A stretch of 64,000 bases of DNA from Myxococcota bacterium (GTDB lineage Bacteria > Myxococcota_A > UBA9160 > SMWR01): assembly GCA_035541475.1 (NCBI GenBank), contig DATKND010000025.1:4377-68376 (forward strand), written 5' to 3'. The translations under genes were made by a program, and so were the position numbers. The notes under the pieces were generated by a model. It saw only the letters and a list, made by a program, of their open reading frames with translations, ran no database searches and was not told where the DNA came from. Shown here in pieces: positions 8,601 to 52,383 of the stretch; position 1 is the first letter of the stretch, and every line of letters begins with the position of its first letter.

Positions 8601-9605
8601 GCCGAGCGGCCGCACCGCCGTCGTCGTCGCGGTGTCGTGCGGCATGAAATACGTCACGAGCTTGAACAGCGTCTCGCTGAGCGGCGTGCCGGTCGCCGGG
8701 TCGAGGTTGTTGATCTCGGTCTCGAGCGCGCTCCAGTTCGTGGAGTAGTCCGCGATCGGAACGCTGACGAAGCCGCCGTTCATCGCGGTCGTGAACTTCG
8801 CGATGCCGAAGCGCACCAGGTTCAGCGAGCAGCCGGGGCGGCAGTCGGGGGCGTACTGCGTGCCGTTGGTGTTGATCTGGTAGATCACATCGCGCGCGAC
8901 CTCGCGCAGCGCGGTGATGCGCGAGCGCTGGTAGAGGCCGTAGGTGGCGCCGCCGATGTAGTGCTGATCGTTCGCGGAGTTGTCGATGTCCGCGAGGATC
9001 TGCGCGCCCGTCATGCTCGTCGGGGGCGTGCCCCACGTGTAGGTCGCGGTGGTGTCGAGGTGGAACAGCCACTCGAGGTAGTCGTCGTCGATCCAGGTCG
9101 GATTGTCGTTGCTGGCGACGCCGTTGATGTTGGTGAGCTGGCCGTCGTGCCAGATCTTGCGCGTCTGGCCGCAGTACTTGCGCGTGATGTAGCCGGTGTC
9201 CGGGTCGTCCGTCGTGCTCGGGCTCGCGGTGAAGCCCGAGGTGCTGGGATCGATCACGAACCAGCAGCCGAAGCCGGGGTAGCAGTCGTAGGTGGTGTGG
9301 TTCCCCAGCTGGTCGGTGCTGGTGTTCGGGCCGTATGGGAAGGGACTCGTCGCCACGGTCGGGTTCGGCAGGACGTCGCAGCCCGCGTACGGCCAGCCCG
9401 GCGGCGGGATCGAGATCGACGCGGGGTGCCGCATGATCTCGTTCATCGAGTTCGAGTTGTCGATCATCAGCAGTACGTTCGGCGGCACGCGCGACGTGAA
9501 CAGCAAGGTGTCGTCGGCGCCGCTGGCGAGGCCGACGAGCAGGACGGCGCAGACCGTCAGGAAGGGCGCCGCGCGTCGCAGCAGCTGTCGGATGCTTCGT
9601 GCCAT
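5616..9605 (-). CDS. pilY1: Type IV pilus tip adhesin PilY1 with N-terminal vWA domain
   Basis: Signal/TM segment MARSIRQLLRRAAPFLTVCAVLLVGLASG. MIDAS-like LLMIDNSNSMNE. PilY1 beta-propeller signature DLDFDGFADVIYIGDLGGNMWKW. Sits after pilX. ORF maximum start is 9632. Confidence 0.85.
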   Translation of the reverse strand: MARSIRQLLRRAAPFLTVCAVLLVGLASGADDTLLFTSRVPPNVLLMIDNSNSMNEIMRHPASISIPPPGWPYAGCDVLPNPTVATSPFPYGPNTSTDQLGNHTTYDCYPGFGCWFVIDPSTSGFTASPSTTDDPDTGYITRKYCGQTRKIWHDGQLTNINGVASNDNPTWIDDDYLEWLFHLDTTATYTWGTPPTSMTGAQILADIDNSANDQHYIGGATYGLYQRSRITALREVARDVIYQINTNGTQYAPDCRPGCSLNLVRFGIAKFTTAMNGGFVSVPIADYSTNWSALETEINNLDPATGTPLSETLFKLVTYFMPHDTATTTAVRPLGVAPGNTGTTRFPAYKYNMTDGSYTTTASSWPPDPVQQACQKNFIVIITDGQPSGDNFTTSGNETQGFSVFRSQLVGDYAPDLTGALDIGTDSTPEEGNPPFQATDATGYLDDIAKAVQDIDIRPDLTGNQHIDVYTIGLATDPVANALLQHTATNGNGLFRAAWSAQDMIDSLVAAIEDILNKAQAFTSAAVPASRTTSAENFYTAYFVPASNTWYWEGHLKDFNFSQTGDILTADGHCAVGVSSTAVPPCPSDGTLRTTANAYWDAADQMPAPASRKLYVELGNTAIFAQPTAFNIPSPASTAATWFGMVSGDLSVVPYSSLVSPDNTTTGAASALIQNLRGCTFAATGCTTRVDNNGSPLYLGDIFHSNPVVVGSPNAPIGEATYQTFATTNRTRTRVIYAGANDGFLHAFHAGTWQTVDTDGVTPLVPPRYDRGTGQELMGFMPYTIRKTVKNLVKTVTGLRTAVNVDGSPVVADVWFNRNTSGSNLTTVNSTAVSKVVAQWRTVLMAGLRDGGSQYFAMDITSPPASAATTTTTYPRYLWGFPVEDPINGVNPGTAGETAWMGNTWSEPVITRVKVRVNNAADHYERWVAVFGGGYSIEGDPNGTGYVATSQKGRVIYMVDINTGEVLAKKAFSATATPTMTAATSEQQLYTEMRYSIASSPAVFDLDFDGFADVIYIGDLGGNMWKWVVTAPGDDTINGATGFKNTAQPQWPFRLWFRGAATTEPPAEMSGGAYSASVHYQSFFFPPTGAMRDGNLVLAFGAGERANPIGSAAVYSDGCTFPIASPMPTACKNNNRFYVVKDTDPEETIGTFPNRYTGRIVEDCGGTCTGEGDLANFDASSPIPCATMNTTKKGYYIVGRDAEKFVSNSTIFLNKVFTGSFLQRDPASTDICSGSGTSYLYSFDIDCALGVWPTNANTQEDRRIAIGSGLPTRPRVSAGSGSGGGGGGGGGGTDCGNKLVLVTSDGGLYNNSPGACPSSGIKVRSWRER

Positions 9606-9668
9606 GTTCGGATCCTCCCGCTGCCCCGTCATGCCGCCTCCTCCTCTCGGCGGGCGCAGCTCGGATGA

Positions 9669-37053: not shown

Positions 37054-37617
37054 CTACAGCGCGTCCTGCGCCGGAGGGGCCGATCCGAGCAGCGACTCGT
37101 ACGACCCGGCCAGACACGCCTCGGGCGCGATGCCGAGCTCGGCGAGCAGCCGATCCACCGCGGCGCGCTGCTCCGATTCCGCGCCGGGCGAGCCGTCGAA
37201 CACGGCCTCGAGCTCCAGGAACGAGCCGAGACCTTCGACGCGATCGAGGTGGATGCGCACGTTGCGCCAGAGCAGCACCTCGCGGCGCTTCCGCACCGTG
37301 CGCACGACCCCGAGGATCTCGCCGAGCAGCGCGCGCGTGCCTTCGCCGTCGCGGACCTCGATTACGCGGTAGTCGGATCTCCGCACGCCCGGCCGGTCGG
37401 GCCGCAGATACGGGATCAGCTCCGCGCGGCCGCTCGAGGTCTCGCGCAGCTTCAAGCGACCGCGCGCCGTCGCGAAGTAGGTGTCGACCTGCGCCTCGTC
37501 GGCATGCGGGCTCGCGCCGAGCCGCAGCGCCGCGGCGCGCGCGGCCGCGAGGTCTCCGCAGCGCGCCTTGATCTCGAGGTTCGCGCATGCTTGCGGCGCG
37601 TTCCGACCCGATGCCAT
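37054..37617 (-). CDS. CYTH domain protein (class IV adenylate cyclase / triphosphate tunnel metalloenzyme)
   Basis: GGAGGGG precedes ATG 37617. NLEIKARC start motif and RLKLRE, WRNVRIHLDRVEGLGSFLELE blocks are typical of CyaB-like CYTH proteins. Confidence 0.75.
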   Translation of the reverse strand: MASGRNAPQACANLEIKARCGDLAAARAAALRLGASPHADEAQVDTYFATARGRLKLRETSSGRAELIPYLRPDRPGVRRSDYRVIEVRDGEGTRALLGEILGVVRTVRKRREVLLWRNVRIHLDRVEGLGSFLELEAVFDGSPGAESEQRAAVDRLLAELGIAPEACLAGSYESLLGSAPPAQDAL

Positions 37618-37713
37618 GCTGCCCCTCCGGCGCGGAGGCCGCCGCGCACGCGATCGAGGTCCGTACTGCGCGCCGACTCGAGCTCCCACGCCCGCCGCGA
37701 GGATCCGCGTCTC

Positions 37714-39090
37714 GTGGCGCCGCGCAAGGCCGTCTACGCGACCGGCGACTTCACGGTCAACGCATTCCTGTCGCTGCTCGCGATCGTCTACGTGTCGTAC
37801 TTCCTGACGCAGGTGGCCGGCCTGCGCCCCGAGCTCGCCGGCGCCGTGCAGATCGTGGGACGCTGTGTCGACGCGGTCAGCGACCCCCTGATGGGCCGCA
37901 TCTCGGATCGCTGCCGCTGGAAGGCGGGCCGGCGCCGGCCCTTCTTCCTGCTCGGCGCCCTGCCCTTCGGCCTGTTCTTCGCCCTGCTGTGGTTGGACCT
38001 CGGCGGCGCCTCGCAGGCCGAGCTCTTCGCCTACTACACCGCGATGTTCATACTCGGCTCGCTGGCGATGACGACGGTGTCGGTTCCGTACCTGGCTCTG
38101 CTGCCGGAGATGGCGATCGGCTACGACGCGCGCACGTCGCTCAACACCTGGCGCAACGCCGGCGCCGTGCTCGGCGTGTTCGCGGCGGTGGTGTTCCGTC
38201 CCATCGCCAACGCGCTCGGCGGCGGACCCGCGGGCTTCGGCGCCGCCGGCGCGCTCTTCGGAGTCTTCTTCGCGCTGCCGTGGCTCGCGATCCATCGCAT
38301 CAGCTGGGAGCGGCCCGAGTTCCAAGAGCGCGTCCCGCAAATGAGCTTCCGAGACGGCCTGCGCCTGCTGCTCGGCCACGCGACCTTTCGCCGTCTCACG
38401 GGCATGTACCTCTGCGGGCGCGTCAGCATGGACCTGATCAGCGCCATGCTGATCCTCTACTTCACCCACTACCTCGGCCGCAGCAGCGACTTCGAGTGGA
38501 TGATGCTCTGCTTCCTGTCGACGGTGCTGCTCTCGCTGCCCATATGGCTGGCGCTGGCACGCCGCTTCGAGAAGGCCACGGTCTTCACGCTCGGCACACT
38601 GTGGTGGACGGTCGCCCAGCTGGCGCTCCTGATGGTGCGGCCCGACTGGCCACGCGCGTGGGTCTTCGCCTTCGCGCCGGTGATCGGCTTCGGCTACGCG
38701 GTCGTCGACCTGATGCCGTGGTCGATGATCGGCGAGGTTGTGGACGAGGACGAACTCGCGAGCGGCGAGCGCCGCGAGGGCATCTACAACGGCTTCTTCA
38801 TGTTCGTGCGCAAGGTGGCGGGCGCGTCGGGCGTCATGCTGGCGATGTTGGTTCTCGGCCGGCTCGGCTATCACCAGGGCGACGTGCAGCCGCCCGCGGC
38901 CGTCGAGGCGATCCGCTGGCTGGCGACCATCGTCCCCGCCGCGCTGCTCCTGCTCTCGGCCGGGTTCGCACGCGGCTATCCGCTGACGCGCGCAGAGCAC
39001 GTGCGGATCCTGGCGCTCCTCGCCGAGCGCGCGCCTCAACCAAACGTCGCGAAGAGCGCCTCGTCGATCAGCGCACGCACCGCGGGGTGA
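37714..39090 (+). CDS. MFS transporter, glycoside-pentoside-hexuronide (GPH) cation symporter family
   Basis: GTG 37714 gives ...KAVYATGDFTVNAF. AVSDPLMGRISDR is the GPH signature. About 12 TM helices. Confidence 0.85.
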   Translation: MAPRKAVYATGDFTVNAFLSLLAIVYVSYFLTQVAGLRPELAGAVQIVGRCVDAVSDPLMGRISDRCRWKAGRRRPFFLLGALPFGLFFALLWLDLGGASQAELFAYYTAMFILGSLAMTTVSVPYLALLPEMAIGYDARTSLNTWRNAGAVLGVFAAVVFRPIANALGGGPAGFGAAGALFGVFFALPWLAIHRISWERPEFQERVPQMSFRDGLRLLLGHATFRRLTGMYLCGRVSMDLISAMLILYFTHYLGRSSDFEWMMLCFLSTVLLSLPIWLALARRFEKATVFTLGTLWWTVAQLALLMVRPDWPRAWVFAFAPVIGFGYAVVDLMPWSMIGEVVDEDELASGERREGIYNGFFMFVRKVAGASGVMLAMLVLGRLGYHQGDVQPPAAVEAIRWLATIVPAALLLLSAGFARGYPLTRAEHVRILALLAERAPQPNVAKSASSISARTAG

Positions 39091-40478
39091 CGCGGAAAGG
39101 TGACGTGCCCGCCCTGGTACCACTCGATGCGCGGGCGCTCCCAGTGGTGCCAGAGATCGCGCACCTGATCGGCGGGCACCAGGCGGTCGGCGATCGCGGC
39201 GAAGAGGTAGCGGCGCTCGCGTGGGACGCGCGGCGGGAACGCGAGCGGCGAGACCACGCGCAGGATCTCGTCCATGTGGTGCTCCTCGATGCCGTGGAGC
39301 GCCGCCTCGAGCAGCTGCACCGGAGGTCCGTGGCGGAAGTAGAGCCGCGTGAAGTCGACCGCGGGGATCCCGGCGATCGCGCAGGCCAGATCGCGCTCGA
39401 GCGCGGCGAGCAGCGACGCGTTGTAGCCGCCGAGCGAGAGTCCGAAGACGCCGATCTCGCGCGCGCCCTCCGCGCGCAGCCACGAGACGATGCGCCGCAG
39501 GTCCCAGATCGCCTGGGTCTGCGCGTGGATCGTGTCGAGGATGTCGCCGGAGAGATAGCCGTCGCCGCTGCGCCGGCCCTTGGCGCGTGGCCCGTGCAGA
39601 GGGAGCACGGGGAGCAGCAGGTTCAGGCCGTGCTGGCGCGCCAGCCACTCCGGGCGGAACGCCAGCAGGTCGATCATCGGGCTTCCCATCTGGTAGCCGT
39701 GGATGCACACCAGCCAGGGTCGCTGCGGATTGCGGCGCACGACCCAGGCGTGCGCCGTCCGGTTCGCGCGGTAGTCGAGCCAGCGATCGCGCCCGGGCTC
39801 GCCGGCGCGCGGCTCGTAGCCGCTCTCGAAGCGAAGCCGCTCGTACTCGATGCCGCGCACGCGCGCGCCGGAGATCTGCACGTCGGAGAGAGGTGGCGGC
39901 GTCTCGTGGTAGCCGCCCGGCTTCTCGAGCCATCCCGCCGCGGCGAAGCGCGCACGCGCCTCCTCGATTTCGCCGCGGATGCGCGCGAGCTCGTCGCCGG
40001 CCGGGATGCCGACGCCGATCTGGAGGGTCGAGAGGATCGCCTCGTCACACGCGATCTCGGCGGCGAGCGCGAGCGACGGCTCGGGGCGCGGCACGTCGGC
40101 CGGATGCGGCTCGAGTCGCAGTGTGTGCCAGCCGGCCGCGACGAAGCCCGCGGCCGAGAGCGCGCAGAACGCGAGCCCGCTGAAGAAGCCGACGAACACG
40201 AAGGCCGGCAGTCCGAACACGAAGCCGAGCACGCCGCCGAGCGCGGCGAACTGCGAGGTGCGCAGGTCGCCCGGCCAGAGGAGCATCGCGACGCCCGACC
40301 CGAGCAGCAGACAGCCGGGCAGCACCGAGAAGAGGAAGCCCGCGACGCCGTGGCCCGGCGCGTTCCACAGCCACACGAGTCCGCCGACGAGCGGAATCCA
40401 CGCCTCGGGCGGCATGCGCACGGGCCGCAGCACACCGCGTCCGACCTGCGCGTCCGAGCGCGCTTCCGACACCGCCAC
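39036..40478 (-). CDS. Membrane-anchored alpha/beta hydrolase
   Basis: GGAGGAAG lies 5 nt before GTG 40478. The N-terminal about 100 aa has about 4 TM helices. Nucleophile elbow GLSLGG. The C-terminus has an Asp/His-containing region. Confidence 0.75.
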   Translation of the reverse strand: MAVSEARSDAQVGRGVLRPVRMPPEAWIPLVGGLVWLWNAPGHGVAGFLFSVLPGCLLLGSGVAMLLWPGDLRTSQFAALGGVLGFVFGLPAFVFVGFFSGLAFCALSAAGFVAAGWHTLRLEPHPADVPRPEPSLALAAEIACDEAILSTLQIGVGIPAGDELARIRGEIEEARARFAAAGWLEKPGGYHETPPPLSDVQISGARVRGIEYERLRFESGYEPRAGEPGRDRWLDYRANRTAHAWVVRRNPQRPWLVCIHGYQMGSPMIDLLAFRPEWLARQHGLNLLLPVLPLHGPRAKGRRSGDGYLSGDILDTIHAQTQAIWDLRRIVSWLRAEGAREIGVFGLSLGGYNASLLAALERDLACAIAGIPAVDFTRLYFRHGPPVQLLEAALHGIEEHHMDEILRVVSPLAFPPRVPRERRYLFAAIADRLVPADQVRDLWHHWERPRIEWYQGGHVTFPRHPAVRALIDEALFATFG

Positions 40479-40562
40479 GCGACTTCCTCCCGTCCTGCGA
40501 GCCGGACCGCGCGACGATACCCTGCGCGCGCGCGCGCGGAAACCGCGCGAGGGGATTCGAGG

Positions 40563-41864
40563 ATGGGCCGCGCTCGCCGCTTCGCCGCGTCGCTGTGGGT
40601 CGCGCTCGCCGCATCGGCCCGCGTGGTGGCTGCCGAGCCCGCCGCGGAGAGCCCCGCGCTCGACGCGCTCGTCGCGCAGACCCTGCCGGACGTGCGCGCC
40701 TGGCGTCGCGACCTGCACGCGCACCCCGAGCTGTCGAACCGCGAGGTCCGCACCGCGAAGCTCGTGGCGAAGGAGCTTCGCGCGCGAGGCTACGAGGTGC
40801 GGACCGGGGTGGCACAGACCGGTGTGATCGGAGTGCTGCGCCGCGGGCCCGGCCCCGTCGTCGCGCTGCGTGCGGACATGGACGCGCTGCCCGTCACCGA
40901 GGAGACCGGACTGCCCTTCGCGTCCAAGGAGCGCTCGACTTACGAAGGCCACGAGGTCGGCGTGATGCACGCCTGCGGCCACGATGCGCACACGGCGATG
41001 CTGCTCGGTGTCGCGACGGTGCTCGCGGCGCTGCGAGGCGATCTCGGCGGAACCGTCTTGCTGATCTTCCAGCCGGCCGAGGAAGGCGCGCCTCGGGGCG
41101 AGCGAGGCGGCGCGAAGCGGATGCTCGAGGAAGGCGCCTTCGACGCGCCGCGACCCGACGCGGTGTTCGCACTGCACGTGACCGCGGAGCTGCCGGTCGG
41201 TCACATCGGCATCCGCTCGGGCGCCGCGACCGCGAGCAGCGACCGCCTCATGATCCGCGTGAAGGGGCGCCAGAGCCACGCGGCCGCTCCCTGGCAGGGC
41301 GTCGATCCGATCGCGACGGCGTCGCGCATCGTGCTCGCGCTCGAAGCGCTGCCCGCGCGCGAGGTCGACGCGCGCATTCCCTCGGTGGTGTCGATCGGCT
41401 CCTTCCAGGGCGGCGTGCGCAACAACATCATCCCGGACGACGTGGAGCTCCAGGGCACGATCCGTTCGCTCGATCCGCAGCAGCGCGCGGCGCTGCACGA
41501 GAAGGTCCGCCGCAGCGCGCAGGGCATCGCGCAGGCGTCGGGCGCCGAGGCCGAAGTCGTGATCGACGAGGGCAACCCGATGGTGTGGAACGATCCGGCG
41601 CTGCTCGCGCGCATGCGGCCCGCGCTCGAGCGCGCGGCGCAGGTCGAGGAGATGCTCCCCTGGACGGCCTCCGAGGACTTCGCGTTCTACGCAGAGCAGG
41701 TCCCGGGGCTCTTCTTCTGGCTCGGCGTGCGCGACCCCGGCGTCGCCGCGGCCGACGCCGCGCAGATCCACACGCCGCGGTTCGACCTCGACGAGGCGGC
41801 GCTGCCGGTCGGCGTGCGCGCGATGTCGGAGCTCGCGCTGGCCTTCCTGCACCGATCGCCGTAG
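40563..41864 (+). CDS. M20D family amidohydrolase (aminoacylase/hippurate hydrolase-like), secreted
   Basis: Signal peptide MGRARRFAASLWVALAASARVVA. LHAHPELS, MHACGHDAH and FQPAEEG motifs are present. Confidence 0.88.
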   Translation: MGRARRFAASLWVALAASARVVAAEPAAESPALDALVAQTLPDVRAWRRDLHAHPELSNREVRTAKLVAKELRARGYEVRTGVAQTGVIGVLRRGPGPVVALRADMDALPVTEETGLPFASKERSTYEGHEVGVMHACGHDAHTAMLLGVATVLAALRGDLGGTVLLIFQPAEEGAPRGERGGAKRMLEEGAFDAPRPDAVFALHVTAELPVGHIGIRSGAATASSDRLMIRVKGRQSHAAAPWQGVDPIATASRIVLALEALPAREVDARIPSVVSIGSFQGGVRNNIIPDDVELQGTIRSLDPQQRAALHEKVRRSAQGIAQASGAEAEVVIDEGNPMVWNDPALLARMRPALERAAQVEEMLPWTASEDFAFYAEQVPGLFFWLGVRDPGVAAADAAQIHTPRFDLDEAALPVGVRAMSELALAFLHRSP

Positions 41865-41901
41865 CGAATTCGCGAAGGCGCCGGTGTTAGACTCGCTCGC
41901 C

Positions 41902-44286
41902 ATGGCGAGCGCGCTCCAGGGGCCGCTGCGCGACGAGCCGACCTGGCCCGCGATCGGTGTCGCAGGACCGTCGCGCGTCCTCTTCCTGTGCGACAGCTCG
42001 AGCCGGCTCGAGCAGCGCCTGCTCGAGGCGTGGGTCGCGCGCCACCGACCGGACGGCGCGGACTGCGAGTGCGTCGCCATCCCGCCCTCGCGCCGCCGGC
42101 GCGAGATCTCGCAGCACCCGCTCGAGGCGCGCATCGCGGCCGCCGGCGACGACCTCGTGCTCGCGCCACTGCGCGTCGCGTGGCTGCCGCGCAAGCGCGA
42201 CGGCGTGCGCGCGGCGCGCTTCTCCGATCTGCTGAAGCTCGGCGACCCGCGCGATCCGTCCTGGCTGCGCCAGCACGTGATCCTGCGCCGCGAGCGCGAC
42301 CGCTGCCGCGTCGTCGCCGGCGAGCCCGCGCCGCTCTCCGAGCTGCGCGCGCGCTGGCAGGCCGCTTCCCGCGCGGGCGCGGAGTCCGCCTCGCTCGCGG
42401 ACTACGTGTCGCGACAGGCCGCGCTCGCGCTCGAGCGCGCCGAGCGGCGGCTTCGCGGCGCGCGCTACAAGGTCCCGCGCCTGGTACACGAGGACATCCT
42501 CGGGCGCCCGGCCTTCCGCGGCGGCCTGGCCCTCCTGGCGCGCGAGCAGCGGCGAAGCTCCGCGAGCGTGGCCCGCGAGGCCGCGCGCGACCTGCGCGAG
42601 ATCGCGGCGACGCACAGCACCTTCGTGATCGACCTCGCCGCGCAGCTGATCCGCATGATGTACACGCGCGGCTACGGCGAGTCGCTGCACTACGACCGGG
42701 AGAAGCTGGCGCGCGTCCAGTCCCTGGCGCAGCGTCACCCCGTGGTGTTGCTTCCGACCCACAAGTCGAATCTCGACCACCTCGTGCTCCAGTACATGCT
42801 CTACGAGAACGGCCACCCGCCGAACCACACGGCCGGCGGCATCAACATGAACTTCTTCCCGGTCGGCCCGCTGGTGCGGCGCAGCGGCGTCTTCTTCATC
42901 CGGCGGAGCTTCAAGGACGACGCCGTCTACAAGTTCGTGCTGCGCCACTACATCGACTACCTGATCGAGAAGCGCTTCTCGCTCGAGTGGTACATCGAGG
43001 GCGGTCGCTCGCGCTCCGGCAAGCTGCTGCCGCCCCGCTTCGGCCTGCTCGCCTACGTGGTCGACGCCTATCGCCGCGGCCGGAGCGACGACGTCGTGCT
43101 GATCCCCGTGTCGATCGCCTACGACCAGATCAGCGACGTGCCCGACTACGCCGCCGAGCAGTCGGGCGCGGCCAAGCAGCGCGAGAGCTTCGGCTGGTTC
43201 CTGCGCTTCCTGCGGCGGCTCGGCCGCCGCTACGGCGAGATCCACATCTCGTTCGGCGAGCCGCTGTCGCTGGCGAAGGCGCTCGGCCCTCCCGATCCGC
43301 AGGCGTCGCCCGACCCCGACGAGCAGAGCCTCGCGCTCCAGAAGCTCGCCTTCGAGGTGTGCCTGCGCATCAACCAGGTCACTCCGATCACGCCGATCTC
43401 GCTGGTCGCGCTCGCGGTGCTCGGCGCGGCCGACCGCGCGCAGACGGTCGAAGACGTGCGCGCGCGCCTCGCGAACCTGCTCTACGACGTCGCGCGCCGG
43501 CAGCTCCCCGTCACGAACGGCGCGGAGCTCGAGACACGCGAGGGCGTCGAGCGTGTGCTCGAGGCGCTCGTCGAGAACGGCGTGGTGACCCGCTTCGACG
43601 AGGGCAGCGAGCGCGTCTACCTGATCGGGCCCGACCAGCAGCTCGCCGCGGCCTACTACCGCAACACCATCATCCACTTCTTCGTGAACCCGGCGATCGG
43701 CGAGCTGGCGCTGCTGCGCGCGGCGGAGGCGGGCGGCGCAGACGCCGCGGGCGAGTTCTTCCGCGCCGCGATGCAGCTCCGCGATCTGCTGAAGTTCGAG
43801 TTCTTCTTCGCGGACAAGGAGATCTTCCGCGGCGAGCTGCGGCGCGAGCTGGCCGAGCGCGATCCGCACTGGGAGGACGCGCTGCGCGGCGGCCCCGATC
43901 CGATCCAGCGCCTGGTGCGGAGCTTCCGACCGTTCAACTCGCACCGCGTGCTGCGACCCTTCTTCGAGGCCTACCGCGTCGTCGCGGATCTGCTCGCGCG
44001 CCAGGACCCGGCTGCGCCGCTCGACCGCGCGCGCTTCCTCGCGGCGTGCATGGGCGTCGGGCGGCAGTACCACCTGCAAGGGCGCCTGCACTCGACGGCG
44101 TCGATCTCGCGCGTGCTGTTCGAGAACGCGCTGCGACTGGCGGAGAACCGCGCGCTGCTCGAGCCGGGTCAGCCCGAGCTCGCGCGCTGGCGCAGCGCGT
44201 TCGCCGACGAGATCCGCGGCTGGCTCCGCCGGATCGACGCCATCGACGCGCTGGCGGCGAGCCGCCGCGCGGGCCTGATCCACTGA
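41902..44286 (+). CDS. plsB: Glycerol-3-phosphate acyltransferase
   Basis: About 795 aa. H(X4)D box LPTHKSNLDHL, FFIRRSF and YIEGGRSRSGKLL..RFGLL blocks are collinear with PlsB. Alternative start GTG 41884. Confidence 0.9.
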   Translation: MASALQGPLRDEPTWPAIGVAGPSRVLFLCDSSSRLEQRLLEAWVARHRPDGADCECVAIPPSRRRREISQHPLEARIAAAGDDLVLAPLRVAWLPRKRDGVRAARFSDLLKLGDPRDPSWLRQHVILRRERDRCRVVAGEPAPLSELRARWQAASRAGAESASLADYVSRQAALALERAERRLRGARYKVPRLVHEDILGRPAFRGGLALLAREQRRSSASVAREAARDLREIAATHSTFVIDLAAQLIRMMYTRGYGESLHYDREKLARVQSLAQRHPVVLLPTHKSNLDHLVLQYMLYENGHPPNHTAGGINMNFFPVGPLVRRSGVFFIRRSFKDDAVYKFVLRHYIDYLIEKRFSLEWYIEGGRSRSGKLLPPRFGLLAYVVDAYRRGRSDDVVLIPVSIAYDQISDVPDYAAEQSGAAKQRESFGWFLRFLRRLGRRYGEIHISFGEPLSLAKALGPPDPQASPDPDEQSLALQKLAFEVCLRINQVTPITPISLVALAVLGAADRAQTVEDVRARLANLLYDVARRQLPVTNGAELETREGVERVLEALVENGVVTRFDEGSERVYLIGPDQQLAAAYYRNTIIHFFVNPAIGELALLRAAEAGGADAAGEFFRAAMQLRDLLKFEFFFADKEIFRGELRRELAERDPHWEDALRGGPDPIQRLVRSFRPFNSHRVLRPFFEAYRVVADLLARQDPAAPLDRARFLAACMGVGRQYHLQGRLHSTASISRVLFENALRLAENRALLEPGQPELARWRSAFADEIRGWLRRIDAIDALAASRRAGLIH

Positions 44287-44293
44287 TGACTTA

Positions 44294-44358
44294 GCCGGGC
44301 CTTCGCTCGGCTTCGCCTCGCTGCGCGTCGGCCGACTCGGTCGAGTCGGCCTCCTTGC
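44294..44358 (+). repeat. GC-rich intergenic repeat, copy R5 (long variant)
   Basis: GCCGGGCCTTCGCTCGGCTTCGCCTCGCTGCGCGTCGGCCGACTCG-GT-CGAGTCGGCCTCCTTGC. Fills the gap between convergent stops 44286 and 44358. Confidence 0.8.
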
Positions 44359-45302
44359 TAGAAGCGGTACTCGCCGCGCAGGCCGAGCGTCGGCGTCGTC
44401 TGGTAACCCTTGTCGAGCGTGTGGCCGCCGTTCTTGTCCTGGATCGTCAGATCGCCCGCCGCGAGGACGCCCGCAAAGCCTTCGAGCGAGAGCTGATCCA
44501 TCGGCCGGAAGGTCAGCCGCGCATAGACCGGAGCCCCGGTGTCCTCGCCAACGCCCTTGCTGTTGCCGTCGTGGTCGTCCATCCGGAAGCGGCGGCGCTG
44601 GTACTGCGCGCCGAGCCCGAGATCGACCTCCTTGGAGATGTTCCAGATCAGCTCGGGTCCGAGACCCGTGCGGCCGCCGAGGTCGGAGATGCCGAGCTTG
44701 AAGGTGAGCGGATCCGCGAAGTGCCAGCGCACGATCGGAATCGGGATCAAGCCGGGGTCGTCCTCGATCTGGCTCATGATGCCGAGCCCTGCGCCGAGGG
44801 TCAGATCCTTGTTCGGCGTCCACACGGCGCCTGCGAGACCGCCGCCCGTGAAGCCGTTGTTGAAGGCCGCCGCGCCTTCGCCCGAGAGCCGGAAGACCGG
44901 CCCCCCGATCAAGGTCCAGTGCTCGTTCATCTTGTAGTCGAGCAGACCGAGCAAGGTGTAGGTGTTGATGTTCTCCCAGCCCGCCGGCCGGATGTTGTCG
45001 GAGAAGTCGTAGGCGCCGAGCGAGTAGATGAAGCGCGGAGTGAAGCCGACGCTGTCGCTCAGCTTGAAGCGGCCCCCGATCGAGGCCTGGAAGTTGTCGA
45101 TCGATACGTTCGAGCCGCCGACGTTCTTGATGTGGCTCTCGAAGACGTGGTCGTAGCCGGCTCGGAGCGCGAAGTTGTGGTCGCTCGGCTCCTGGGGCTC
45201 CACTTCTTCGACGTCCACGGTCTGGGCCGCTGCGACGAGCGGCGCGGCGAGAGCCGCCACGGCGAAGAGCGACTGGACCCAACGATCGAAACGACGCGAC
45301 AT
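44358..45302 (-). CDS. Outer-membrane beta-barrel protein
   Basis: GGAGGG precedes ATG 45302. Signal peptide ...AALAAPLVAAAQT. Alternating-hydrophobicity strands. C-terminal GLRGEYRF ends in an aromatic residue. Confidence 0.75.
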   Translation of the reverse strand: MSRRFDRWVQSLFAVAALAAPLVAAAQTVDVEEVEPQEPSDHNFALRAGYDHVFESHIKNVGGSNVSIDNFQASIGGRFKLSDSVGFTPRFIYSLGAYDFSDNIRPAGWENINTYTLLGLLDYKMNEHWTLIGGPVFRLSGEGAAAFNNGFTGGGLAGAVWTPNKDLTLGAGLGIMSQIEDDPGLIPIPIVRWHFADPLTFKLGISDLGGRTGLGPELIWNISKEVDLGLGAQYQRRRFRMDDHDGNSKGVGEDTGAPVYARLTFRPMDQLSLEGFAGVLAAGDLTIQDKNGGHTLDKGYQTTPTLGLRGEYRF

Positions 45303-45430
45303 CGCGATCCCTCCGGTGGAAACGGGGCAGCCCCCGAGGCGGCGCACGGTAGTCGAGCGCGAGCGCGCCGTCTATGCGCGAATCGCCCCAGTCCGTGGCG
45401 GAGATGTCGCGAAATCCCGGCGCCGGCCGG

Positions 45431-45928
45431 CTAACTGCGCGACGTACCAGCCTCGCGCGTCATCTGCTCCGCGAGCGCGTTGAGGTCATCGGCGAGGTCG
45501 TGGAAAGCGAAGCCGCGGCGCAGCCGCACGCGCGCGGACAGATCGCCCGCGATCAGCGAGGCCAGCATGCGCCGGAAGGCAACCACCGGGCCGACCAGGC
45601 GGTGACACCAGATCAGCGTCATGAACGCGATCAGCACCGCGTACGCGACGGCGATCACCGCGGCGACGGTGAGGAAGTCGCTCGTCTGCGCGCGCAGCAA
45701 CGACTCGAGCGCGGGCGCCTCGGCGGCGTGCTGGAAGGCCTCGAACAAACGGCCGTAGGCGGCGCGCGCGTAGGCCGCGAGCCCGACGCCCACAGCGCCC
45801 GTCACGAGCAGGATCGCGATCGGCAGCTCGAGCTGGAGCGAGCGCTCGATCGAGAGGTTCATCGCGTGCCGGCGCCCCGGGCGCCGCGGCGTCGTGGAAG
45901 TCGTGGAGATCGCCGTGGCCTCGACCAT
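45431..45928 (-). CDS. Two-TM protein with a HAMP domain and no output domain
   Basis: GGAGGAAG precedes ATG 45928. Two TM helices are followed by HRLVGPVVAFRRMLASLIAGDLSARV...FHDLADDLNALAEQM (HAMP). The protein ends about 10 aa later. Confidence 0.65.
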   Translation of the reverse strand: MVEATAISTTSTTPRRPGRRHAMNLSIERSLQLELPIAILLVTGAVGVGLAAYARAAYGRLFEAFQHAAEAPALESLLRAQTSDFLTVAAVIAVAYAVLIAFMTLIWCHRLVGPVVAFRRMLASLIAGDLSARVRLRRGFAFHDLADDLNALAEQMTREAGTSRS

Positions 45929-46102
45929 CGCTTCCTCCTGTCGTCGCACTCTCTTCGGCAGAACCGCCTCGCGGGCGTAGCCAACGGGCGCAGCGACGCC
46001 CGCTCGAGGCAGGTCGCTCGAGGCCGGGCGGCGGCCTACGGTACGCGGCCGTCGCGCGGCCGGACTGCTCGCTCGCGTCGGGCGCGCGCAGAGGAGACGC
46101 AG

Positions 46103-46861
46103 ATGAGCGGCGGGTCGAGGCTGGAGGGCAGGCGCGCGCTGGTGACGGGCGGATCGCGCGGCATCGGGCGCGCGATCGCGTTGGCCTTCGCAGCGGAGGG
46201 CGCGGACGTCGCGATCGGCTATCGCCGCGAGCACGAGTCCGCGCAGCAGACCGTCGACGCGCTGTGCGCGCGCGGCCGCAAGGCCTTCGCGAAGGCGGCC
46301 GACGTGCGCGACGCCGTCGCCGTGCGCGCGCTCGTGGCGGAGAGCCGCGACGCGCTCGGCGGTCTCGACATCGTCGTCGCGAACGCGGGTGTGCCGACGC
46401 GCTTCGAGCCGCTCGAGCAGGTCGACCCTTCCTACTGGCAGCGCGTCATCGACATCGACCTGCACGGCGTCTTCCACACCTTGCACGCGGCGCTTCCGAT
46501 CTTGCAGGCGCAGGGCCACGGCGTGGTCCTCACGGTCTCGTCGGTGGCGGCCGACCTGTGCGGGCCCTTCGGCGGTCCGTACGTCGCGGCGAAGGCGGCG
46601 GTCAACGCGCTCACGCGCGTGATCGCGCGCGAGAACGCGGCGAAGGGGATCCGCTGCAACGTGATTGCGCCCGGTCTGATCGCGACCGACATCGCCGACG
46701 GCATGGTCGCCTATCACGGCGACGCGCTCGTGAAGGCGATCCCGATGCGGCGTATGGGCAGCGCCGACGAGGTGGCGCGGCTCGCCGTATACCTGGCGTC
46801 GGACGACGCCGTGTGGATCACGGGAAAGATCTTTCGCATCGACGGCGGGCAATTCATATGA
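46103..46861 (+). CDS. SDR family oxidoreductase (FabG-like)
   Basis: GAGGAG precedes ATG 46103. LVTGGSRGIGRA, NAGV and YVAAKAA motifs are present. Confidence 0.88.
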   Translation: MSGGSRLEGRRALVTGGSRGIGRAIALAFAAEGADVAIGYRREHESAQQTVDALCARGRKAFAKAADVRDAVAVRALVAESRDALGGLDIVVANAGVPTRFEPLEQVDPSYWQRVIDIDLHGVFHTLHAALPILQAQGHGVVLTVSSVAADLCGPFGGPYVAAKAAVNALTRVIARENAAKGIRCNVIAPGLIATDIADGMVAYHGDALVKAIPMRRMGSADEVARLAVYLASDDAVWITGKIFRIDGGQFI

Positions 46862-46864
46862 CGT

Positions 46865-46930
46865 GAGGCGGAGCAGAGGCCGCCCTGCGGCGGCCATCTG
46901 TTCCTCCTCGGGCGCACTCTGCTCCGCCTC
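46865..46930 (+). terminator. Nested inverted repeat after the FabG-like gene
   Basis: The outer 14-bp perfect arms are GAGGCGGAGCAGAG and CTCTGCTCCGCCTC. They enclose the inner hairpin GGCCGCC-CTGC-GGCGGCC. It starts 4 nt after the stop. Confidence 0.5.
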
Positions 46931-46944
46931 GGCGGGTCCCCGAC

Positions 46945-46974
46945 TTGACCCTTGGACGCTTTTCGCTCTAGATT
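46945..46974 (+). promoter_or_regulatory. Sigma-70-like promoter for the intein-containing radical SAM gene
   Basis: TTGACC, an 18-nt spacer, then TAGATT. The -10 element ends 9 nt before ATG 46984, and there is no SD in between. Confidence 0.4.
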
Positions 46975-46983
46975 CGCCTCGTA

Positions 46984-49077
46984 ATGGAGCCTCCCGACCG
47001 CCCGCCGACGCCTCGCGGGCGGCTGATCGCGCGCGGCTCCGCGGACAACCCGGCCAACCGATTCGAGCGCCTGCGCGTCGTCGCCGACGCAGAGATCGAG
47101 CCGCCGCGCGACGACGACACGGGCGAGCCGGCACCCGTCCCGACGCTCTACCTGCGCGATCCCACTCGCACCCTGCTCGCGCACAACGACAGCCCCGACC
47201 TCGGCTTCGACACGAGCCTGAATCCGTACCGCGGGTGCTCCCACGGCTGCTCGTATTGCCTGGATCCCAAGACGCCCGTGCTCTACGCCGACTTCATCTG
47301 GCGCCCGCTCGGGAACGTCCAGGTGGGCGACGTGCTCGCCGGGTTCGACGAGCATGCGCCGCCGGGCGTGTATCGGAAGCTGCGACCGGCGCGGGTCGAG
47401 GCGGTGTGGTGGTCGCGCAAGCCCACCCTGCGGTTGATCACGCGCAACACCGAGGTGCGAACGACGGCCGAGCACCGCTGGCTGCAGGGCCGCATGTTCC
47501 GATGGTCGCGCACCGACCGGCTCGCGCCGGGCCGCAAGTTGCGCCACATGCCGATCGTCGCGAGCGAGATCGAGGACGACGACTACCGCGCTGGCTATCT
47601 CGCCGGTCTCTCGCTCGGCGACGGAACTTTCCGCTACCAGCCCGGCGGGCGCAGCGACAAGAAGGGATTTCCCGCGGCGTACTGGCGCGTCGCGACGATC
47701 GACCGCGAGCCGCTCGAGAGAATCGTCGCGTACCTCGAGCAACTCTCGATCTCTGCATGGATCCGGCCGTTCGATGCCGGAGTGCGGACGACATCGCCGA
47801 TGTGGAAGGTGGAGATCCGGTCGCTCGCGAAGCTCGAGATCGTGAGCAAGCTGCTCTTCGTCGAACGAGAGAGCCGAAGCTATCGCCGCGGCTTCGTCGC
47901 AGGCTTCTTCGATGCGGAGGGTCACAACGGGACCTCGCTCCGCATGTCGCAGGTCGACCTGTCGGTGCTCGAACGCGTGACCGCCTACGCCCGTTCCCTC
48001 GGCTTCGAGCTCGGTCTGGAGCGACGCGACGGAAGAGCCAGCACGCTTCGTCTGCCCGGCTGGCTGACCGATCGCATCCGGTTCTTCTCGGTGCTCCAGC
48101 CCGCCATCCGTCGCAAGCGCGAGGCGCTATTCGGGCGCGTGCCGTTCCTCGACCCCGAGCCGATCGAGGCGATCGAGCGGGGCCCGACGAGCGAGGTCGT
48201 GGACATCCAGACCTCGACCGGGACGTTCTATGCTGGAGGCCTCTCGACGCATAACTGTTTCGCACGACCCACCCACGAGTACCTCGGCTTCTCCGCCGGT
48301 CTCGACTTCGAGACGCGCATCCTCGTCAAGGAGGACGCGCCCGAGCTGCTCCGTCGGGCGCTCTCCTCGCCGCGCTGGGAGCCGCGCGTGGTGGCGCTCT
48401 CGGGTGTCACCGACGCCTATCAACCCGTCGAGGCGAAGCTGCGCCTCACCCGCCGCTGCCTCGAGGTCTTCGCCGAGTTCCGGAACCCCGTCACGATCAT
48501 CACGAAGAGCGCGCTCGTCGCGCGCGATGCCGATCTGCTCGCGGAGCTCGCGCGCCACCACGCCGCGTCGGTGCACATCTCCGTGACGAGCCTCGACGAC
48601 TCGCTGCGCCGCGTCCTCGAACCGCGCGCCTCGTCGCCGCGCAGCCGACTTGCGGCGATCGAGACGCTGGCGGCGGCCGGCGTGCCGGTCGGCGTGATCT
48701 GCGCGCCGGTGATCCCCGCCGTGAACGACTCCGAGATCCCGGCGGTCCTCGACGCCGCGGCGAGGGCCGGCGCGCGCGGGGCCGGCTGGGTGATGCTGCG
48801 GCTGCCCCACGGCCTGAAGGAGCTCTTCGAGTCCTGGCTCGAGCGTCACTTCCCGGAGCGCAAGGAGCGCGTGTTGTCGCTCCTCCGCGAGGCGGGCGGC
48901 GGCGCGCTCTACGACTCGCGCTTCCACACGCGGCAGCGAGGCAGCGGTGTCTACGCCGAGCAGATTCGGTCGCTCTTCGAGCTCGCTCGGCGTCGCGCGG
49001 GGCTCGCGAACGAGCGCACTCCGCTCTCCACCGCCGCGTTTCGCCGGCCGGCATCGGCGCAACTCCCGCTGCTCTGA
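46984..49077 (+). CDS. PA0069/SplB-like (COG1533) radical SAM protein, interrupted by an intein
   Basis: N-extein: RGSADNPANRF...NDSPDLGFDTSLNPYRGCSHGCSY. C-extein: CFARPTHEYLGFSAGLDFETRILVK... Joined, they give the family motif GCxHGCxYC(F/Y)ARP. The spliced length of 364 aa is typical of the family. Confidence 0.88.
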   Translation: MEPPDRPPTPRGRLIARGSADNPANRFERLRVVADAEIEPPRDDDTGEPAPVPTLYLRDPTRTLLAHNDSPDLGFDTSLNPYRGCSHGCSYCLDPKTPVLYADFIWRPLGNVQVGDVLAGFDEHAPPGVYRKLRPARVEAVWWSRKPTLRLITRNTEVRTTAEHRWLQGRMFRWSRTDRLAPGRKLRHMPIVASEIEDDDYRAGYLAGLSLGDGTFRYQPGGRSDKKGFPAAYWRVATIDREPLERIVAYLEQLSISAWIRPFDAGVRTTSPMWKVEIRSLAKLEIVSKLLFVERESRSYRRGFVAGFFDAEGHNGTSLRMSQVDLSVLERVTAYARSLGFELGLERRDGRASTLRLPGWLTDRIRFFSVLQPAIRRKREALFGRVPFLDPEPIEAIERGPTSEVVDIQTSTGTFYAGGLSTHNCFARPTHEYLGFSAGLDFETRILVKEDAPELLRRALSSPRWEPRVVALSGVTDAYQPVEAKLRLTRRCLEVFAEFRNPVTIITKSALVARDADLLAELARHHAASVHISVTSLDDSLRRVLEPRASSPRSRLAAIETLAAAGVPVGVICAPVIPAVNDSEIPAVLDAAARAGARGAGWVMLRLPHGLKELFESWLERHFPERKERVLSLLREAGGGALYDSRFHTRQRGSGVYAEQIRSLFELARRRAGLANERTPLSTAAFRRPASAQLPLL
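47257..48255 (+). mobile_element. Intein (333 aa) with LAGLIDADG homing endonuclease domain
   Basis: Block A CLDPKTPV (Cys1). Block B TTAEHRWL. LAGLIDADG motifs YLAGLSLGDG (47596-47625) and FVAGFFDAEGH (47893-47925). Block F VVDIQTSTGTFYAGG. Block G LSTHN followed by a +1 Cys. Confidence 0.88.
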
Positions 49078-49162
49078 CTCCGCTCCGCGACCCTGCTACC
49101 GTGCGCGCGTGCCGCGAGTCGACGTTGCCTCTGGCGCGTATCGTCACCGGACGGCGTAGCCG

Positions 49163-51140
<1,978 letters not shown>

Positions 51141-51147
51141 GGAGCGC

Positions 51148-52383
51148 ATGGCGAAGCTGTTCATCGAGGATCTCGACCTGCGCGGGAAGCGCGTGCTCAT
51201 GCGCGTCGACTTCAACGTGCCGACGAAGGACGGCCGGGTCGAGAACGACAAGCGCCTGCGCGCGTCGCTGCCCTCGATCCGCTACGCGCTCGAGCGCGGC
51301 GCGAGCCTCGTGCTGATGAGCCACCTCGGCCGGCCCGACGGCAAGAAGGTCGCGAAGTACTCGCTGCGGCCGGTGGCGGAGCAGCTCTCCCTGCTGCTCG
51401 GCCGACCGGTGAAGTTCCTCGAGGACTGCGTCGGCCCCGACGTCGAGAAGAGCTGCGCCGCGCTGAAACCGGGTGAGGTCGCGCTGCTCGAGAACCTGCG
51501 CTTCCACATCGAGGAGGAGGGCAAGGTCAAGCAGAAGGACGGCACGTCGGTAAAGGCCGATCCGGAGGCGTTGAAGGCCTTCCGCGCGTCGCTCTCGAAG
51601 CTCGGCGACGTCTACGTGAACGACGCCTTCGGGACCGCGCACCGGGCGCACTCGTCGATGACGGGCATCTCGCTCGCGCAACGCGCCGCGGGCTACCTGA
51701 TGAAGCGGGAGCTCGACTTCCTCGGCGACGCGGTCGAGAAGCCGCAGCGACCGTTCGTCGCGATCCTCGGCGGCGCCAAGGTCTCCGGAAAGATCGACGT
51801 GATCTCCGCGCTGCTGCCGAAGGTCGATACGCTCCTGATCGGCGGCGGGATGGCCTTCACGTTCTACAAGGCGATGGGCAAGCCGATCGGCCGTTCGCTC
51901 GTCGAGGACGACCGCATCGAGATGGCGCGCGAGCTGCTCGCGCGCGCGGGCGACAAGCTGGTGCTGCCGGTCGATGTCGTCGTCACCGACGCGCTCGATC
52001 TCGAGGCGCGCAAAGTCGGAACCTTGCGGACGCTGGCCTGGGACCGGATCGGACCGACCGACATCGGCGTCGACATCGGCGAGGCGACGCGCGCGAAGTT
52101 CGCGGACCTCGTGAGGCGCGCGAAGACGGTGGTGTGGAACGGTCCGATGGGCGTCTTCGAGATCGAGGCTACGGCACGCGGGACGCTCGCGGTCGCGAGC
52201 GCGCTCGCCGACGCGACTGCACACGGCGCGGTGACGGTGGTCGGCGGCGGCGACTCGGTATCCGCGATCGAGCAGGCGGGGCTCGCCGAGAAGGTGACCC
52301 ACGTCTCCACCGGCGGAGGCGCCTCGCTCGAGTTCCTCGAGGGCAAGGATCTGCCCGGCGTCCGCTATCTCAGCGAGAAATAG
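51148..52383 (+). CDS. pgk: Phosphoglycerate kinase
   Basis: GGAG is upstream. RVDFNVP, SHLGRP and FGTAHRAH motifs are present. Confidence 0.95.
   Translation: MAKLFIEDLDLRGKRVLMRVDFNVPTKDGRVENDKRLRASLPSIRYALERGASLVLMSHLGRPDGKKVAKYSLRPVAEQLSLLLGRPVKFLEDCVGPDVEKSCAALKPGEVALLENLRFHIEEEGKVKQKDGTSVKADPEALKAFRASLSKLGDVYVNDAFGTAHRAHSSMTGISLAQRAAGYLMKRELDFLGDAVEKPQRPFVAILGGAKVSGKIDVISALLPKVDTLLIGGGMAFTFYKAMGKPIGRSLVEDDRIEMARELLARAGDKLVLPVDVVVTDALDLEARKVGTLRTLAWDRIGPTDIGVDIGEATRAKFADLVRRAKTVVWNGPMGVFEIEATARGTLAVASALADATAHGAVTVVGGGDSVSAIEQAGLAEKVTHVSTGGGASLEFLEGKDLPGVRYLSEK

Follow-up and report, generated by a model that had tools for sequence, protein, structure and literature searches.

A probable class 1 LAGLIDADG intein at the third cluster cysteine of a PA0069-family radical SAM gene from a Myxococcota bacterium

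In a 64,000-nucleotide stretch of DNA from a Myxococcota bacterium (contig DATKND010000025.1 of assembly GCA_035541475.1; the whole stretch analysed is called the window below), a chromosomal gene for a PA0069-family (COG1533) radical S-adenosylmethionine (SAM) protein is interrupted by a 333-residue insert. This insert is very probably a canonical class 1 intein with an apparently intact double-motif LAGLIDADG endonuclease, that is, a selfish mobile element. A reading of the DNA from its letters alone (the sequence-only reading) had proposed that the +1 splicing nucleophile is also the third ligand of the iron–sulfur (Fe–S) cluster, and this is indeed the arrangement found: the insertion lies between the Tyr at −1 and the third Cys of the CX3CX2C motif.

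Translation places CLDPKTPV from residue 92 and CFARPTHEY from residue 425 of the precursor. The insert proposed between GCSHGCSY and CFARPTHEY therefore proves exact at nucleotides 47257 to 48255, and its conceptual removal yields a product of 364 residues that reads ...YRGCSHGCSY-CFARPTHEY.... The reading frame is continuous throughout the open reading frame (ORF), with zero frameshifts or stops, and the calculated masses are 78.1 kDa for the precursor, 40.1 kDa for the ligated exteins and 38.0 kDa for the intein. The assignment of the host to the PA0069/COG1533 proteins also held. The NCBIfam model NF033668 (PA0069 family radical SAM protein; curated cut-off 360 bits) gives 460.3 bits with the spliced sequence and 441.7 bits with the precursor, in which it matches residues 424–694, the C-extein part. 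Pfam Radical_SAM scores 75 bits on the spliced sequence, starting at profile position 2 and including the cluster motif; on the precursor it covers residues 447–590. The contiguous motif (C85-SHG-C89-SY-C92) is present only after conceptual splicing. In the precursor, ligands two and three of the cluster stand 333 residues apart and the third motif position is held by the intein Cys1, forming a C85-x3-C89-x2-Cys1 pseudo-motif. NCBIfam ranks the PA0069 family as a "hypothetical equivalog" with no assigned reaction; [4Fe-4S]-dependent reductive cleavage of SAM by the host is a prediction.

Every intein hallmark listed by the sequence-only reading (Cys1, TAEH, two LAGLIDADG motifs, His-Asn and the +1 Cys) is present (Table 1), and its identification of a LAGLIDADG intein is borne out by Pfam, by alignment to the NCBIfam model NF038136, by Foldseek matches to PI-PfuI and by a junction-precise BLASTN break. 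Pfam on the insert alone returned LAGLIDADG_3 (E 6.5e-10) and Hom_end (E 2e-7), and positions 76–334 of the NF038136 profile align end to end with intein residues 1–333 (E 1.2e-14), with position 335 on Cys+1. An AlphaFold2 model of the insert, with 16 homologues as input, has a mean predicted local distance difference test score (pLDDT) of 85 and a predicted template-modelling score (pTM) of 0.82. Its best Foldseek matches in the PDB are PI-PfuI (1dq3, E 9e-12), the Tli and Pho VMA inteins and PI-SceI; the top-ranked intein structures are 1dq3, 7qss, 7qst, 1ef0 and 1vde, with intein matches at E 9e-12 to 1e-9. The endonuclease domain matches I-DmoI chains with target-normalised TM-scores of 0.54–0.68, mostly at least 0.6, and root-mean-square deviations of 3.9–6.1 Å. 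A phmmer search of PDB sequences gave weak matches (1dq3, E 3e-4; I-DmoI, about 0.6).

Class 1 membership follows from the combination of Cys1, TxxH, the block F Asp, His-Asn and Cys+1 with a Hint fold in the model and a precise in-frame insertion. The endonuclease has the features of monomeric two-motif LAGLIDADG enzymes, namely two motifs that each end in an acidic residue and pseudo-dimeric fold matches to I-DmoI; it appears intact, and site-specific cleavage is predicted from these features. A class 3 intein was rejected on the lack of the WCT triplet and the presence of Cys1, and a bacterial intein-like (BIL) domain on the presence of a +1 Cys, a nested endonuclease and empty alleles. A tBLASTn search with the intein detected no second copy in the window.

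The same architecture recurs in at least 120 of the best database homologues of the precursor (60–78% identity, 663–728 residues), each of them interrupted at the matching point. In 119 of the 120, scanning for motifs gave an insert of 321–335 residues that starts with Cys, ends in His-Asn and is followed by Cys; the last one, P0081, was confirmed by inspection. The sequence-only reading had held that collinear inserts devoid of splicing residues would speak for a domain insertion rather than an intein. None was seen: all 124 extracted homologous inserts (120 full-length and four mini) keep Cys1 and His-Asn, directly followed by the +1 Cys that served to define their C-junction. C1, T70, H73, D316, H332, N333, D122 and E221 are each at least 99% conserved in the 120 full-length inteins. 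The junction residues (Cys1, His-Asn and Cys+1) are invariant among about 120 homologous clusters, and the same junction architecture is found in about 20 species-representative genomes with a readable junction.

The survey of empty and occupied alleles that had been suggested recovered both. A search with the spliced extein retrieved 115 intein-free proteins with a contiguous C-x3-C-x-Y-C-[FY]-A-R-P, and the six closest relatives of the window extein (80–89% amino-acid identity) are all intein-free. Two intein-free contigs, L053 and L054, align collinearly with the window to the left and right of the intein at 74–93% nucleotide identity, with 86–93% in the flanks, and their BLASTN alignments break at window positions 47258/48256 (L054) and 47259/48254 (L053); breaks were read from BLASTN, since a global MAFFT nucleotide alignment of occupied and empty alleles put the gap wrongly. 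L054 keeps the gene order of the window as far as the alpha/beta hydrolase: M20 peptidase, glycerol-3-phosphate acyltransferase, further genes, short-chain dehydrogenase/reductase (SDR), radical SAM gene, alpha/beta hydrolase. Mini-inteins of 142–158 residues occupy the identical site in P0130, P0131, P0180 and P0213; these retain blocks A, B, F and G, the LAGLIDADG domain alone being cleanly deleted, and could be of use as compact, naturally occurring splicing domains whose junction combines Cys(−3), Cys1 and Cys+1. Taken together, the three kinds of allele (full-length, mini and empty) represent the classical life cycle of an intein with a homing endonuclease. One further protein, P0135 (283 residues, from a Myxococcota metagenome-assembled genome (MAG), annotated as PA0069 family), is 90% identical to the window C-extein; it starts MGGVFHGCAYCFARP, is missing the first 80 residues as well as the first cluster Cys, and is probably a truncated or mis-started gene call.

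We propose that a 78-kDa precursor would be translated from the interrupted gene and would undergo an N–S acyl shift at Cys1, followed by trans-thioesterification, in which the N-extein would pass to Cys+1. Cyclisation of Asn333 would then free the 38-kDa intein, and an S–N shift would rebuild the peptide bond to give a 40-kDa enzyme whose contiguous C85-x3-C89-x2-C92 would be able to hold the [4Fe-4S]/SAM cluster. Both the class 1 pathway and what blocks A, B, F and G do in it are established (PMC10663303). The normal site would presumably be loaded with its Fe–S cluster only once splicing is complete. The sequence-only reading went further, in holding that the precursor cannot bind the cluster and that splicing and cluster assembly compete for one thiol; these statements are conjecture, and the precursor still displays the C85-x3-C89-x2-Cys1 pseudo-motif. 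For mobility, the endonuclease would presumably cut the highly conserved DNA of intein-free motifs, into which the intein would be copied, and such homing would account for the mixture of allele types (full-length, mini and empty). Two properties would favour the site, the invariance of the +1 Cys as a metal ligand and the strong conservation of the DNA around it, which make it hard for the host to alter the target by mutation or to lose the element through an inexact deletion. No regulatory role is required to account for the data.

Selection on the element can be read from the 120 occupied alleles, whose mean pairwise identity is 65% in the Hint domain, 65% in the endonuclease and 66% in the exteins. 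The endonuclease thus diverges as fast as the Hint domain and exteins, which indicates that purifying selection acts on it about as strongly as on the host enzyme. Some pairs are discordant, in either direction, and indicate lateral replacement: the inteins of P0028 and P0056, for example, are 93% alike and their exteins 74%, and those of P0019 and P0027 are 64% alike with exteins at 87%. The DNA around the insertion point (marked by a slash here and below) is strongly conserved among alleles, reading TAYCGNGGNTGY...CACGGNTGY...TAY/TGYTWCGCNCGNCC...CACGARTACCTCGG, and would suit a homing-endonuclease target. A candidate target was rebuilt from L053 and L054, the empty site of L053 being TACCGAGGCTGCTCCCACGGGTGCTCGTAC/TGCTTCGCGCGGCCGACTCACGAGTACCTCGGC.

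Several points weigh against this interpretation. Intein and extein distances correlate (r = 0.73), and the GC content at third codon positions (GC3) of the intein is 87%, against 90–92% for the host; on these grounds most of the inheritance looks vertical. Overall GC is 67.7% in the intein and 72.8% in the exteins, in a window of 70% GC. With GC3 values this close, the element has almost ameliorated to the composition of its high-GC host, and recent foreign acquisition was rejected on the same comparison. For the window copy, recent homing is conjectural. Furthermore, we found no experimental splicing or endonuclease activity for any PA0069-family intein, that of the window included. Lastly, the obligatory Cys(−3)-x-x-Cys1 leaves room for conditional splicing, which a selfish element neither requires nor excludes.

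This last point leads to an alternative in which the intein is a conditional sensor. A Cys89(−3)–Cys1 or Cys1–Cys+1 disulfide, or Zn or an Fe–S cluster bound to C-x3-C-x2-Cys1, would hold back the first acyl shift whenever conditions were oxidising or metals out of balance, and the oxygen-labile enzyme would mature only under reducing, Fe–S-competent conditions. Intein termini lie close together in solved structures, and the four thiols Cys85, Cys89, Cys1 and Cys+1 probably converge at the junction. By the definition used in reviews, a Cys at −3 combined with a catalytic Cys1 (here C89-S-Y-C1) is the configuration of redox-trap inteins; it is present in every allele, and a Cys at −3 recurs in 88 of the 116 closest representative relatives. 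MoaA is a radical SAM enzyme. In the Pyrococcus abyssi MoaA intein, a native Cys−3:Cys1 disulfide blocks splicing until it is reduced (Callahan et al. 2011, via PMC10663303 and PMC3922620), a trap that the reviews read as protecting an oxygen-labile enzyme (PMC10663303, PMC3922620), and an engineered Cys−3 trap is functional in the Ssp DnaE intein (PMC3922620). By this analogy, any interplay with cluster chemistry may take place at Cys1 rather than at Cys+1. Nevertheless, we consider a sensor function unlikely. Since the host motif itself demands a Cys at −3, finding one there cannot be taken as a sign that regulation was selected for; the intein is dispensable, as its absence from the closest relatives indicates; the conserved endonuclease indicates selfish maintenance; and gating in the PA0069 family is argued from analogy.

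It is far less probable that the insert is a fixed non-splicing domain or a decaying intein remnant, with the 697-residue protein either functional or a pseudogene in its unexcised form. Splicing is here predicted from sequence, and the nearly ameliorated composition would fit a long residence. On the other side, the nucleophiles and His-Asn are intact and invariant in all 124 inserts, conservation of T70, H73 and D316 is at least 99% in the full-length ones, an unexcised insert would leave the second and third cluster ligands split by 333 residues, the site also occurs in empty and mini forms, which fits an intein life cycle, and the ORF is undamaged by frameshifts or stops. Least credible of all is an artefact of assembly or gene calling, in which a chimeric contig would have fused a homing-endonuclease gene to a radical SAM gene. 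Identical architecture and junctions occur in at least 120 independent protein clusters and about 20 species-representative genomes, the frame is continuous, and intein-free contigs match the flanks collinearly to either side of the insert; the recurrent architecture and collinear flanks effectively refute this explanation. A selfish class 1 intein accounts best for the locus.

Two peptide patterns run against GTDB species representatives recovered 52 loci. The PA0069-type alleles closest to that of the window come from MAGs of Myxococcota, "Deltaproteobacteria", Candidatus Binatia, Latescibacterota, Gemmatimonadota and Eiseniibacteriota, and the nearest intein among the representatives, at 74% identity, is in a Myxococcota MAG. 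The PA0069-family allele is represented by at least 120 metagenomic protein clusters and is very abundant in soil and groundwater metagenomes. The sole RefSeq-named example, P0021, is called "PA0069 family radical SAM protein" with no mention of an intein; such annotation makes the protein lengths and domain calls of the family misleading.

The sequence-only reading had taken the insertion site to be new, and here it was wrong. The site is curated in the sister Rv2578c family, where NF038136 is an "exception" model named "intein-containing Rv2578c family radical SAM protein", a product name used in RefSeq and UniRef. Moreover, SplB/COG1533 proteins, with 48 inteins from Actinobacteria only, rank among the most frequent hosts of bacterial inteins (Novikova et al. 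2016, PMC4760082), although neither radical SAM nor an Fe–S motif is mentioned for them there. An intein at a radical SAM cluster cysteine is already known as a kind, and its occurrence in the PA0069 family adds a member. The window protein scores 317.8 bits against NF038136, below the cut-off of 700 bits, and is not a member; its extein scores 228 bits against NF038135 (Rv2578c). A search with a Nesterenkonia precursor returned at least 120 proteins, all with a C1...HN/C insert at C-x3-C-x-Y/C-F-A-R, of 341–352 residues when full-length and 163–188 residues when mini. The carriers, many of them cultured, include Nesterenkonia, Isoptericola, Microbacterium, Cellulomonas, Agromyces, Cryobacterium and Leifsonia; named NF038136 members have junctions GCLHQCVY/C...SHN/CFARK, and an intein at the same C-x3-C-x-Y/C-F-A-R position was also read in Acidimicrobiia. 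Two PA0069 hosts, L030 (Steroidobacteraceae MAG, 604–1650) and L036 (proteobacterial MAG, 3001–4044), carry an intein of the actinobacterial Rv2578c type. These inteins are 46–52% identical to those of Acidimicrobiia and Nesterenkonia and about 30% identical to that of the window, so two distinct intein lineages occupy one site in the PA0069 family.

To look beyond these families, the intein alone was searched with HMMER against 1.84 billion representative sequences, giving 2,437 matches at E ≤ 1e-3. Junctions were inspected in the best 150, among which the counts take no account of kinship. The N-junction was readable in 116, and the 88 of these with Cys at −3 comprise 49 with a canonical C-x3-C-x2/ and 25 with C-xn-C-x2/. 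The conceptually spliced hosts among the best 150 form 25 BLAST clusters. Radical SAM hosts are the PA0069, Rv2578c and spore-photoproduct-lyase (SPL) families, B12-binding radical SAM proteins, DUF1848, DUF5131 (radical SAM megacluster 5-2 at RadicalSAM.org) and several other Radical_SAM families. The remainder include Cas4/PD-(D/E)XK nucleases (C-x2-C-x5-C), a DnaG-type CHC2 zinc finger and an SF2 helicase with its junction within a C-x2-C ... C-x2-C cysteine motif. In P0254–P0256 and P0261, hosts with no Pfam match, the intein sits in an apparent zinc ribbon, CPDCG...x17...GGGW/CFKKKGGCGA, which from its sequence looks like a metal-ligand cysteine beyond the radical SAM superfamily. Four long proteins, P0317, P0366, P0381 and P0382 (1,220–1,833 residues), have five to six separate stretches that each match the intein, which suggests several inteins per host; the +1 residue is Ser or Thr in three of them and Cys in P0382.

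Genome loci add QueE-like hosts in Poribacteria (L035, L037–L040, L042–L045 and L048), Nitrospirae (L047) and Acidimicrobiia (L050), with junctions CNLRCxW/CDTPF or CDS..., as well as on viral contigs (L056, L061 and L062). The inteins of QueE-like hosts are related at 19–31% identity and hold the same motif position, and some of their genes lie on phage contigs. Related inteins on viral contigs occur in QueE-like and other radical SAM genes; L058 and L059 (3001–3969) have a radical SAM-like host, IHGCDIN/C...VHN/CSYCDKV, in which the insertion lies before the second Cys of C-x3-C-x2-C instead of the third. Other hosts are cyanobacterial or come from Armatimonadota, Bathyarchaeota and Nitrososphaerota. 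One cyanobacterial copy, L020 (Dapis sp. BLCC M172, near 3001), has an in-frame stop at its fifth codon (CLAP, stop, TLI), and is either decaying or affected by a sequencing error; the orthologous copies L017–L019 (Trichodesmium, Okeania) are intact.

Inteins of DUF5131 and DUF1848 hosts are 50–56% identical to that of the window, and those of cyanobacterial and Armatimonadota radical SAM hosts 44–46%, nearer than the same-site Rv2578c inteins. These nearer inteins in other families, together with the Rv2578c-type inteins of L030 and L036, indicate jumps between host families. The DNA common to the insertion sites of different host families comprises the motif codons only (TGY...TGY..TWY/TGY TWY); a shared homing-site DNA was looked for across these families and gave no evidence of one endonuclease specificity. 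One could imagine a coherent LAGLIDADG lineage, undescribed to judge by our literature search, specialised on metal-ligand cysteines, which would move between non-homologous hosts and always have as its +1 Cys the last Cys of a C-x2-C knuckle, mostly the third CX3CX2C ligand and otherwise one in Cas4-type Fe–S motifs or Zn ribbons, with a four-cysteine junction that would make splicing redox- or Fe–S/Zn-conditional. We regard this idea as doubtful. If true, the maturation of oxygen-labile enzymes would be gated post-translationally. Whatever the fate of this idea, the closest relatives of the window intein occupy the same cysteine in many radical SAM families, phage QueE-like genes among them, and so form the Fe–S counterpart of the known P-loop clustering. 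They provide naturally occurring precursors whose Cys(−3), Cys1 and Cys+1 double as Fe–S ligands, a direct test bed for mutual control between splicing and Fe–S cluster insertion or redox state. Taken alone, the window locus is of modest importance, being one more intein at a catalytic residue with a sister family already modelled. Our literature search found nothing on clustering of inteins at Fe–S/Zn cysteine motifs or on inteins in the radical SAM cluster motif, co-mentions of "intein" and "radical SAM" being incidental.

Table 1 Features of the interrupted gene and of its neighbours (window positions)
Feature	Position	Strand	Evidence or remark
PA0069-family radical SAM precursor gene with intein	46984..49077	+	697 aa plus stop; ORF list; NF033668 score
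N-extein, residues 1-91, last residues GCSHGCSY	46984..47256	+	Pfam Radical_SAM start in spliced sequence
Cluster ligand Cys85	47236-47238	+	In N-extein
Cluster ligand Cys89	47248-47250	+	In N-extein; −1 residue is Tyr91
Probable intein, 333 aa, class 1 (Cys1...His-Asn)	47257..48255	+	Homologues, profiles, fold; 999-nt clean insertion relative to empty L053 and L054
Block A with catalytic Cys1, CLDPKTPVLYADF	47257..47295	+	Cys1 in 124/124; C1, L9, D12 at least 99% conserved
Block B TxxH, T70-A-E-H73	47464..47475	+	T70, H73 at least 99% conserved in 120 full-length homologues
Nested LAGLIDADG homing-endonuclease domain, about intein residues 106-290	47572..48126	+	Pfam; PDB sequence and fold matches; missing from mini-inteins
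LAGLIDADG motif 1, GYLAGLSLGDG (113-123), catalytic Asp122	47593..47625	+	G121, D122 at least 99% conserved
LAGLIDADG motif 2, GFVAGFFDAEG (212-222), catalytic Glu221	47890..47922	+	D219, E221, G222 at least 99% conserved
Block F, EVVDIQTSTGTFYA (313-326), Asp316	48193..48234	+	V314, D316, I317, T319 at least 99% conserved
Block G, GGLSTHN (327-333), penultimate His332, terminal Asn333	48235..48255	+	HN in 124/124
+1 Cys, splicing nucleophile and third Cys of CX3CX2C	48256..48258	+	Intein-free homologues read C-x3-C-x-Y-C-[FY]-A-R-P
C-extein, CFARPTHEY to stop, remainder of radical SAM barrel	48256..49077	+	Pfam Radical_SAM, NF033668
M20 peptidase	C-terminal part of ORF 37587-41861		
PlsB-like glycerol-3-phosphate acyltransferase	41887-44283		
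Signal-peptide protein with no Pfam match	44361-45347	-	
SDR	about 46100-46858		
Alpha/beta hydrolase	49163-49879		
Glyceraldehyde-3-phosphate dehydrogenase (GAPDH)	about 50080-51137		
Phosphoglycerate kinase (PGK)	51148-52380		

The surroundings of the gene, from 37587 to 52380, form a housekeeping neighbourhood. Elsewhere in the window, a 1,338-residue ORF on the minus strand (5619–9632) has a PilY1 beta-propeller domain (type IV pilus-associated) and is unrelated to the intein; Rfam at gathering thresholds found no family anywhere in the 64-kb window. At this GC content (70%), the two strands carry long, overlapping spurious ORFs, which makes ORF lists alone unreliable here.

Among known systems, the Rv2578c inteins are the closest in setting, with a COG1533 host, the identical position, class 1 membership, a LAGLIDADG domain and mini variants. 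The window host, however, belongs to the sister PA0069 family, its intein is 29–32% identical to the actinobacterial ones, and the PA0069-type allele is found in MAGs of Myxococcota and other phyla instead of Actinobacteria. The P. abyssi MoaA intein shares an oxygen-sensitive radical SAM host, a native Cys at −3 and a catalytic Cys1; it differs in its radical SAM family and archaeal origin, the comparison is with its description in reviews rather than by insertion site or sequence, and redox control has been demonstrated for it, whereas for the window intein it is suggested by analogy only. PI-PfuI, PI-SceI, the Tli and Pho VMA inteins and I-DmoI offer the structural parallel of a Hint splicing domain with a nested double-LAGLIDADG endonuclease; PI-PfuI, PI-SceI and the VMA inteins are 11–20% identical to the window intein in sequence, interrupt other hosts (ribonucleotide reductase, V-ATPase) at other sites and, unlike it, are in no case located at a metal-ligand cysteine. 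Finally, related inteins cluster at P-loop/ATPase motifs of non-orthologous proteins (Novikova et al. 2016, PMC4760082). In both cases an equivalent cofactor-binding motif is occupied in non-orthologous hosts, the P-loop there and an Fe–S/Zn cysteine knuckle for the relatives of the window intein.

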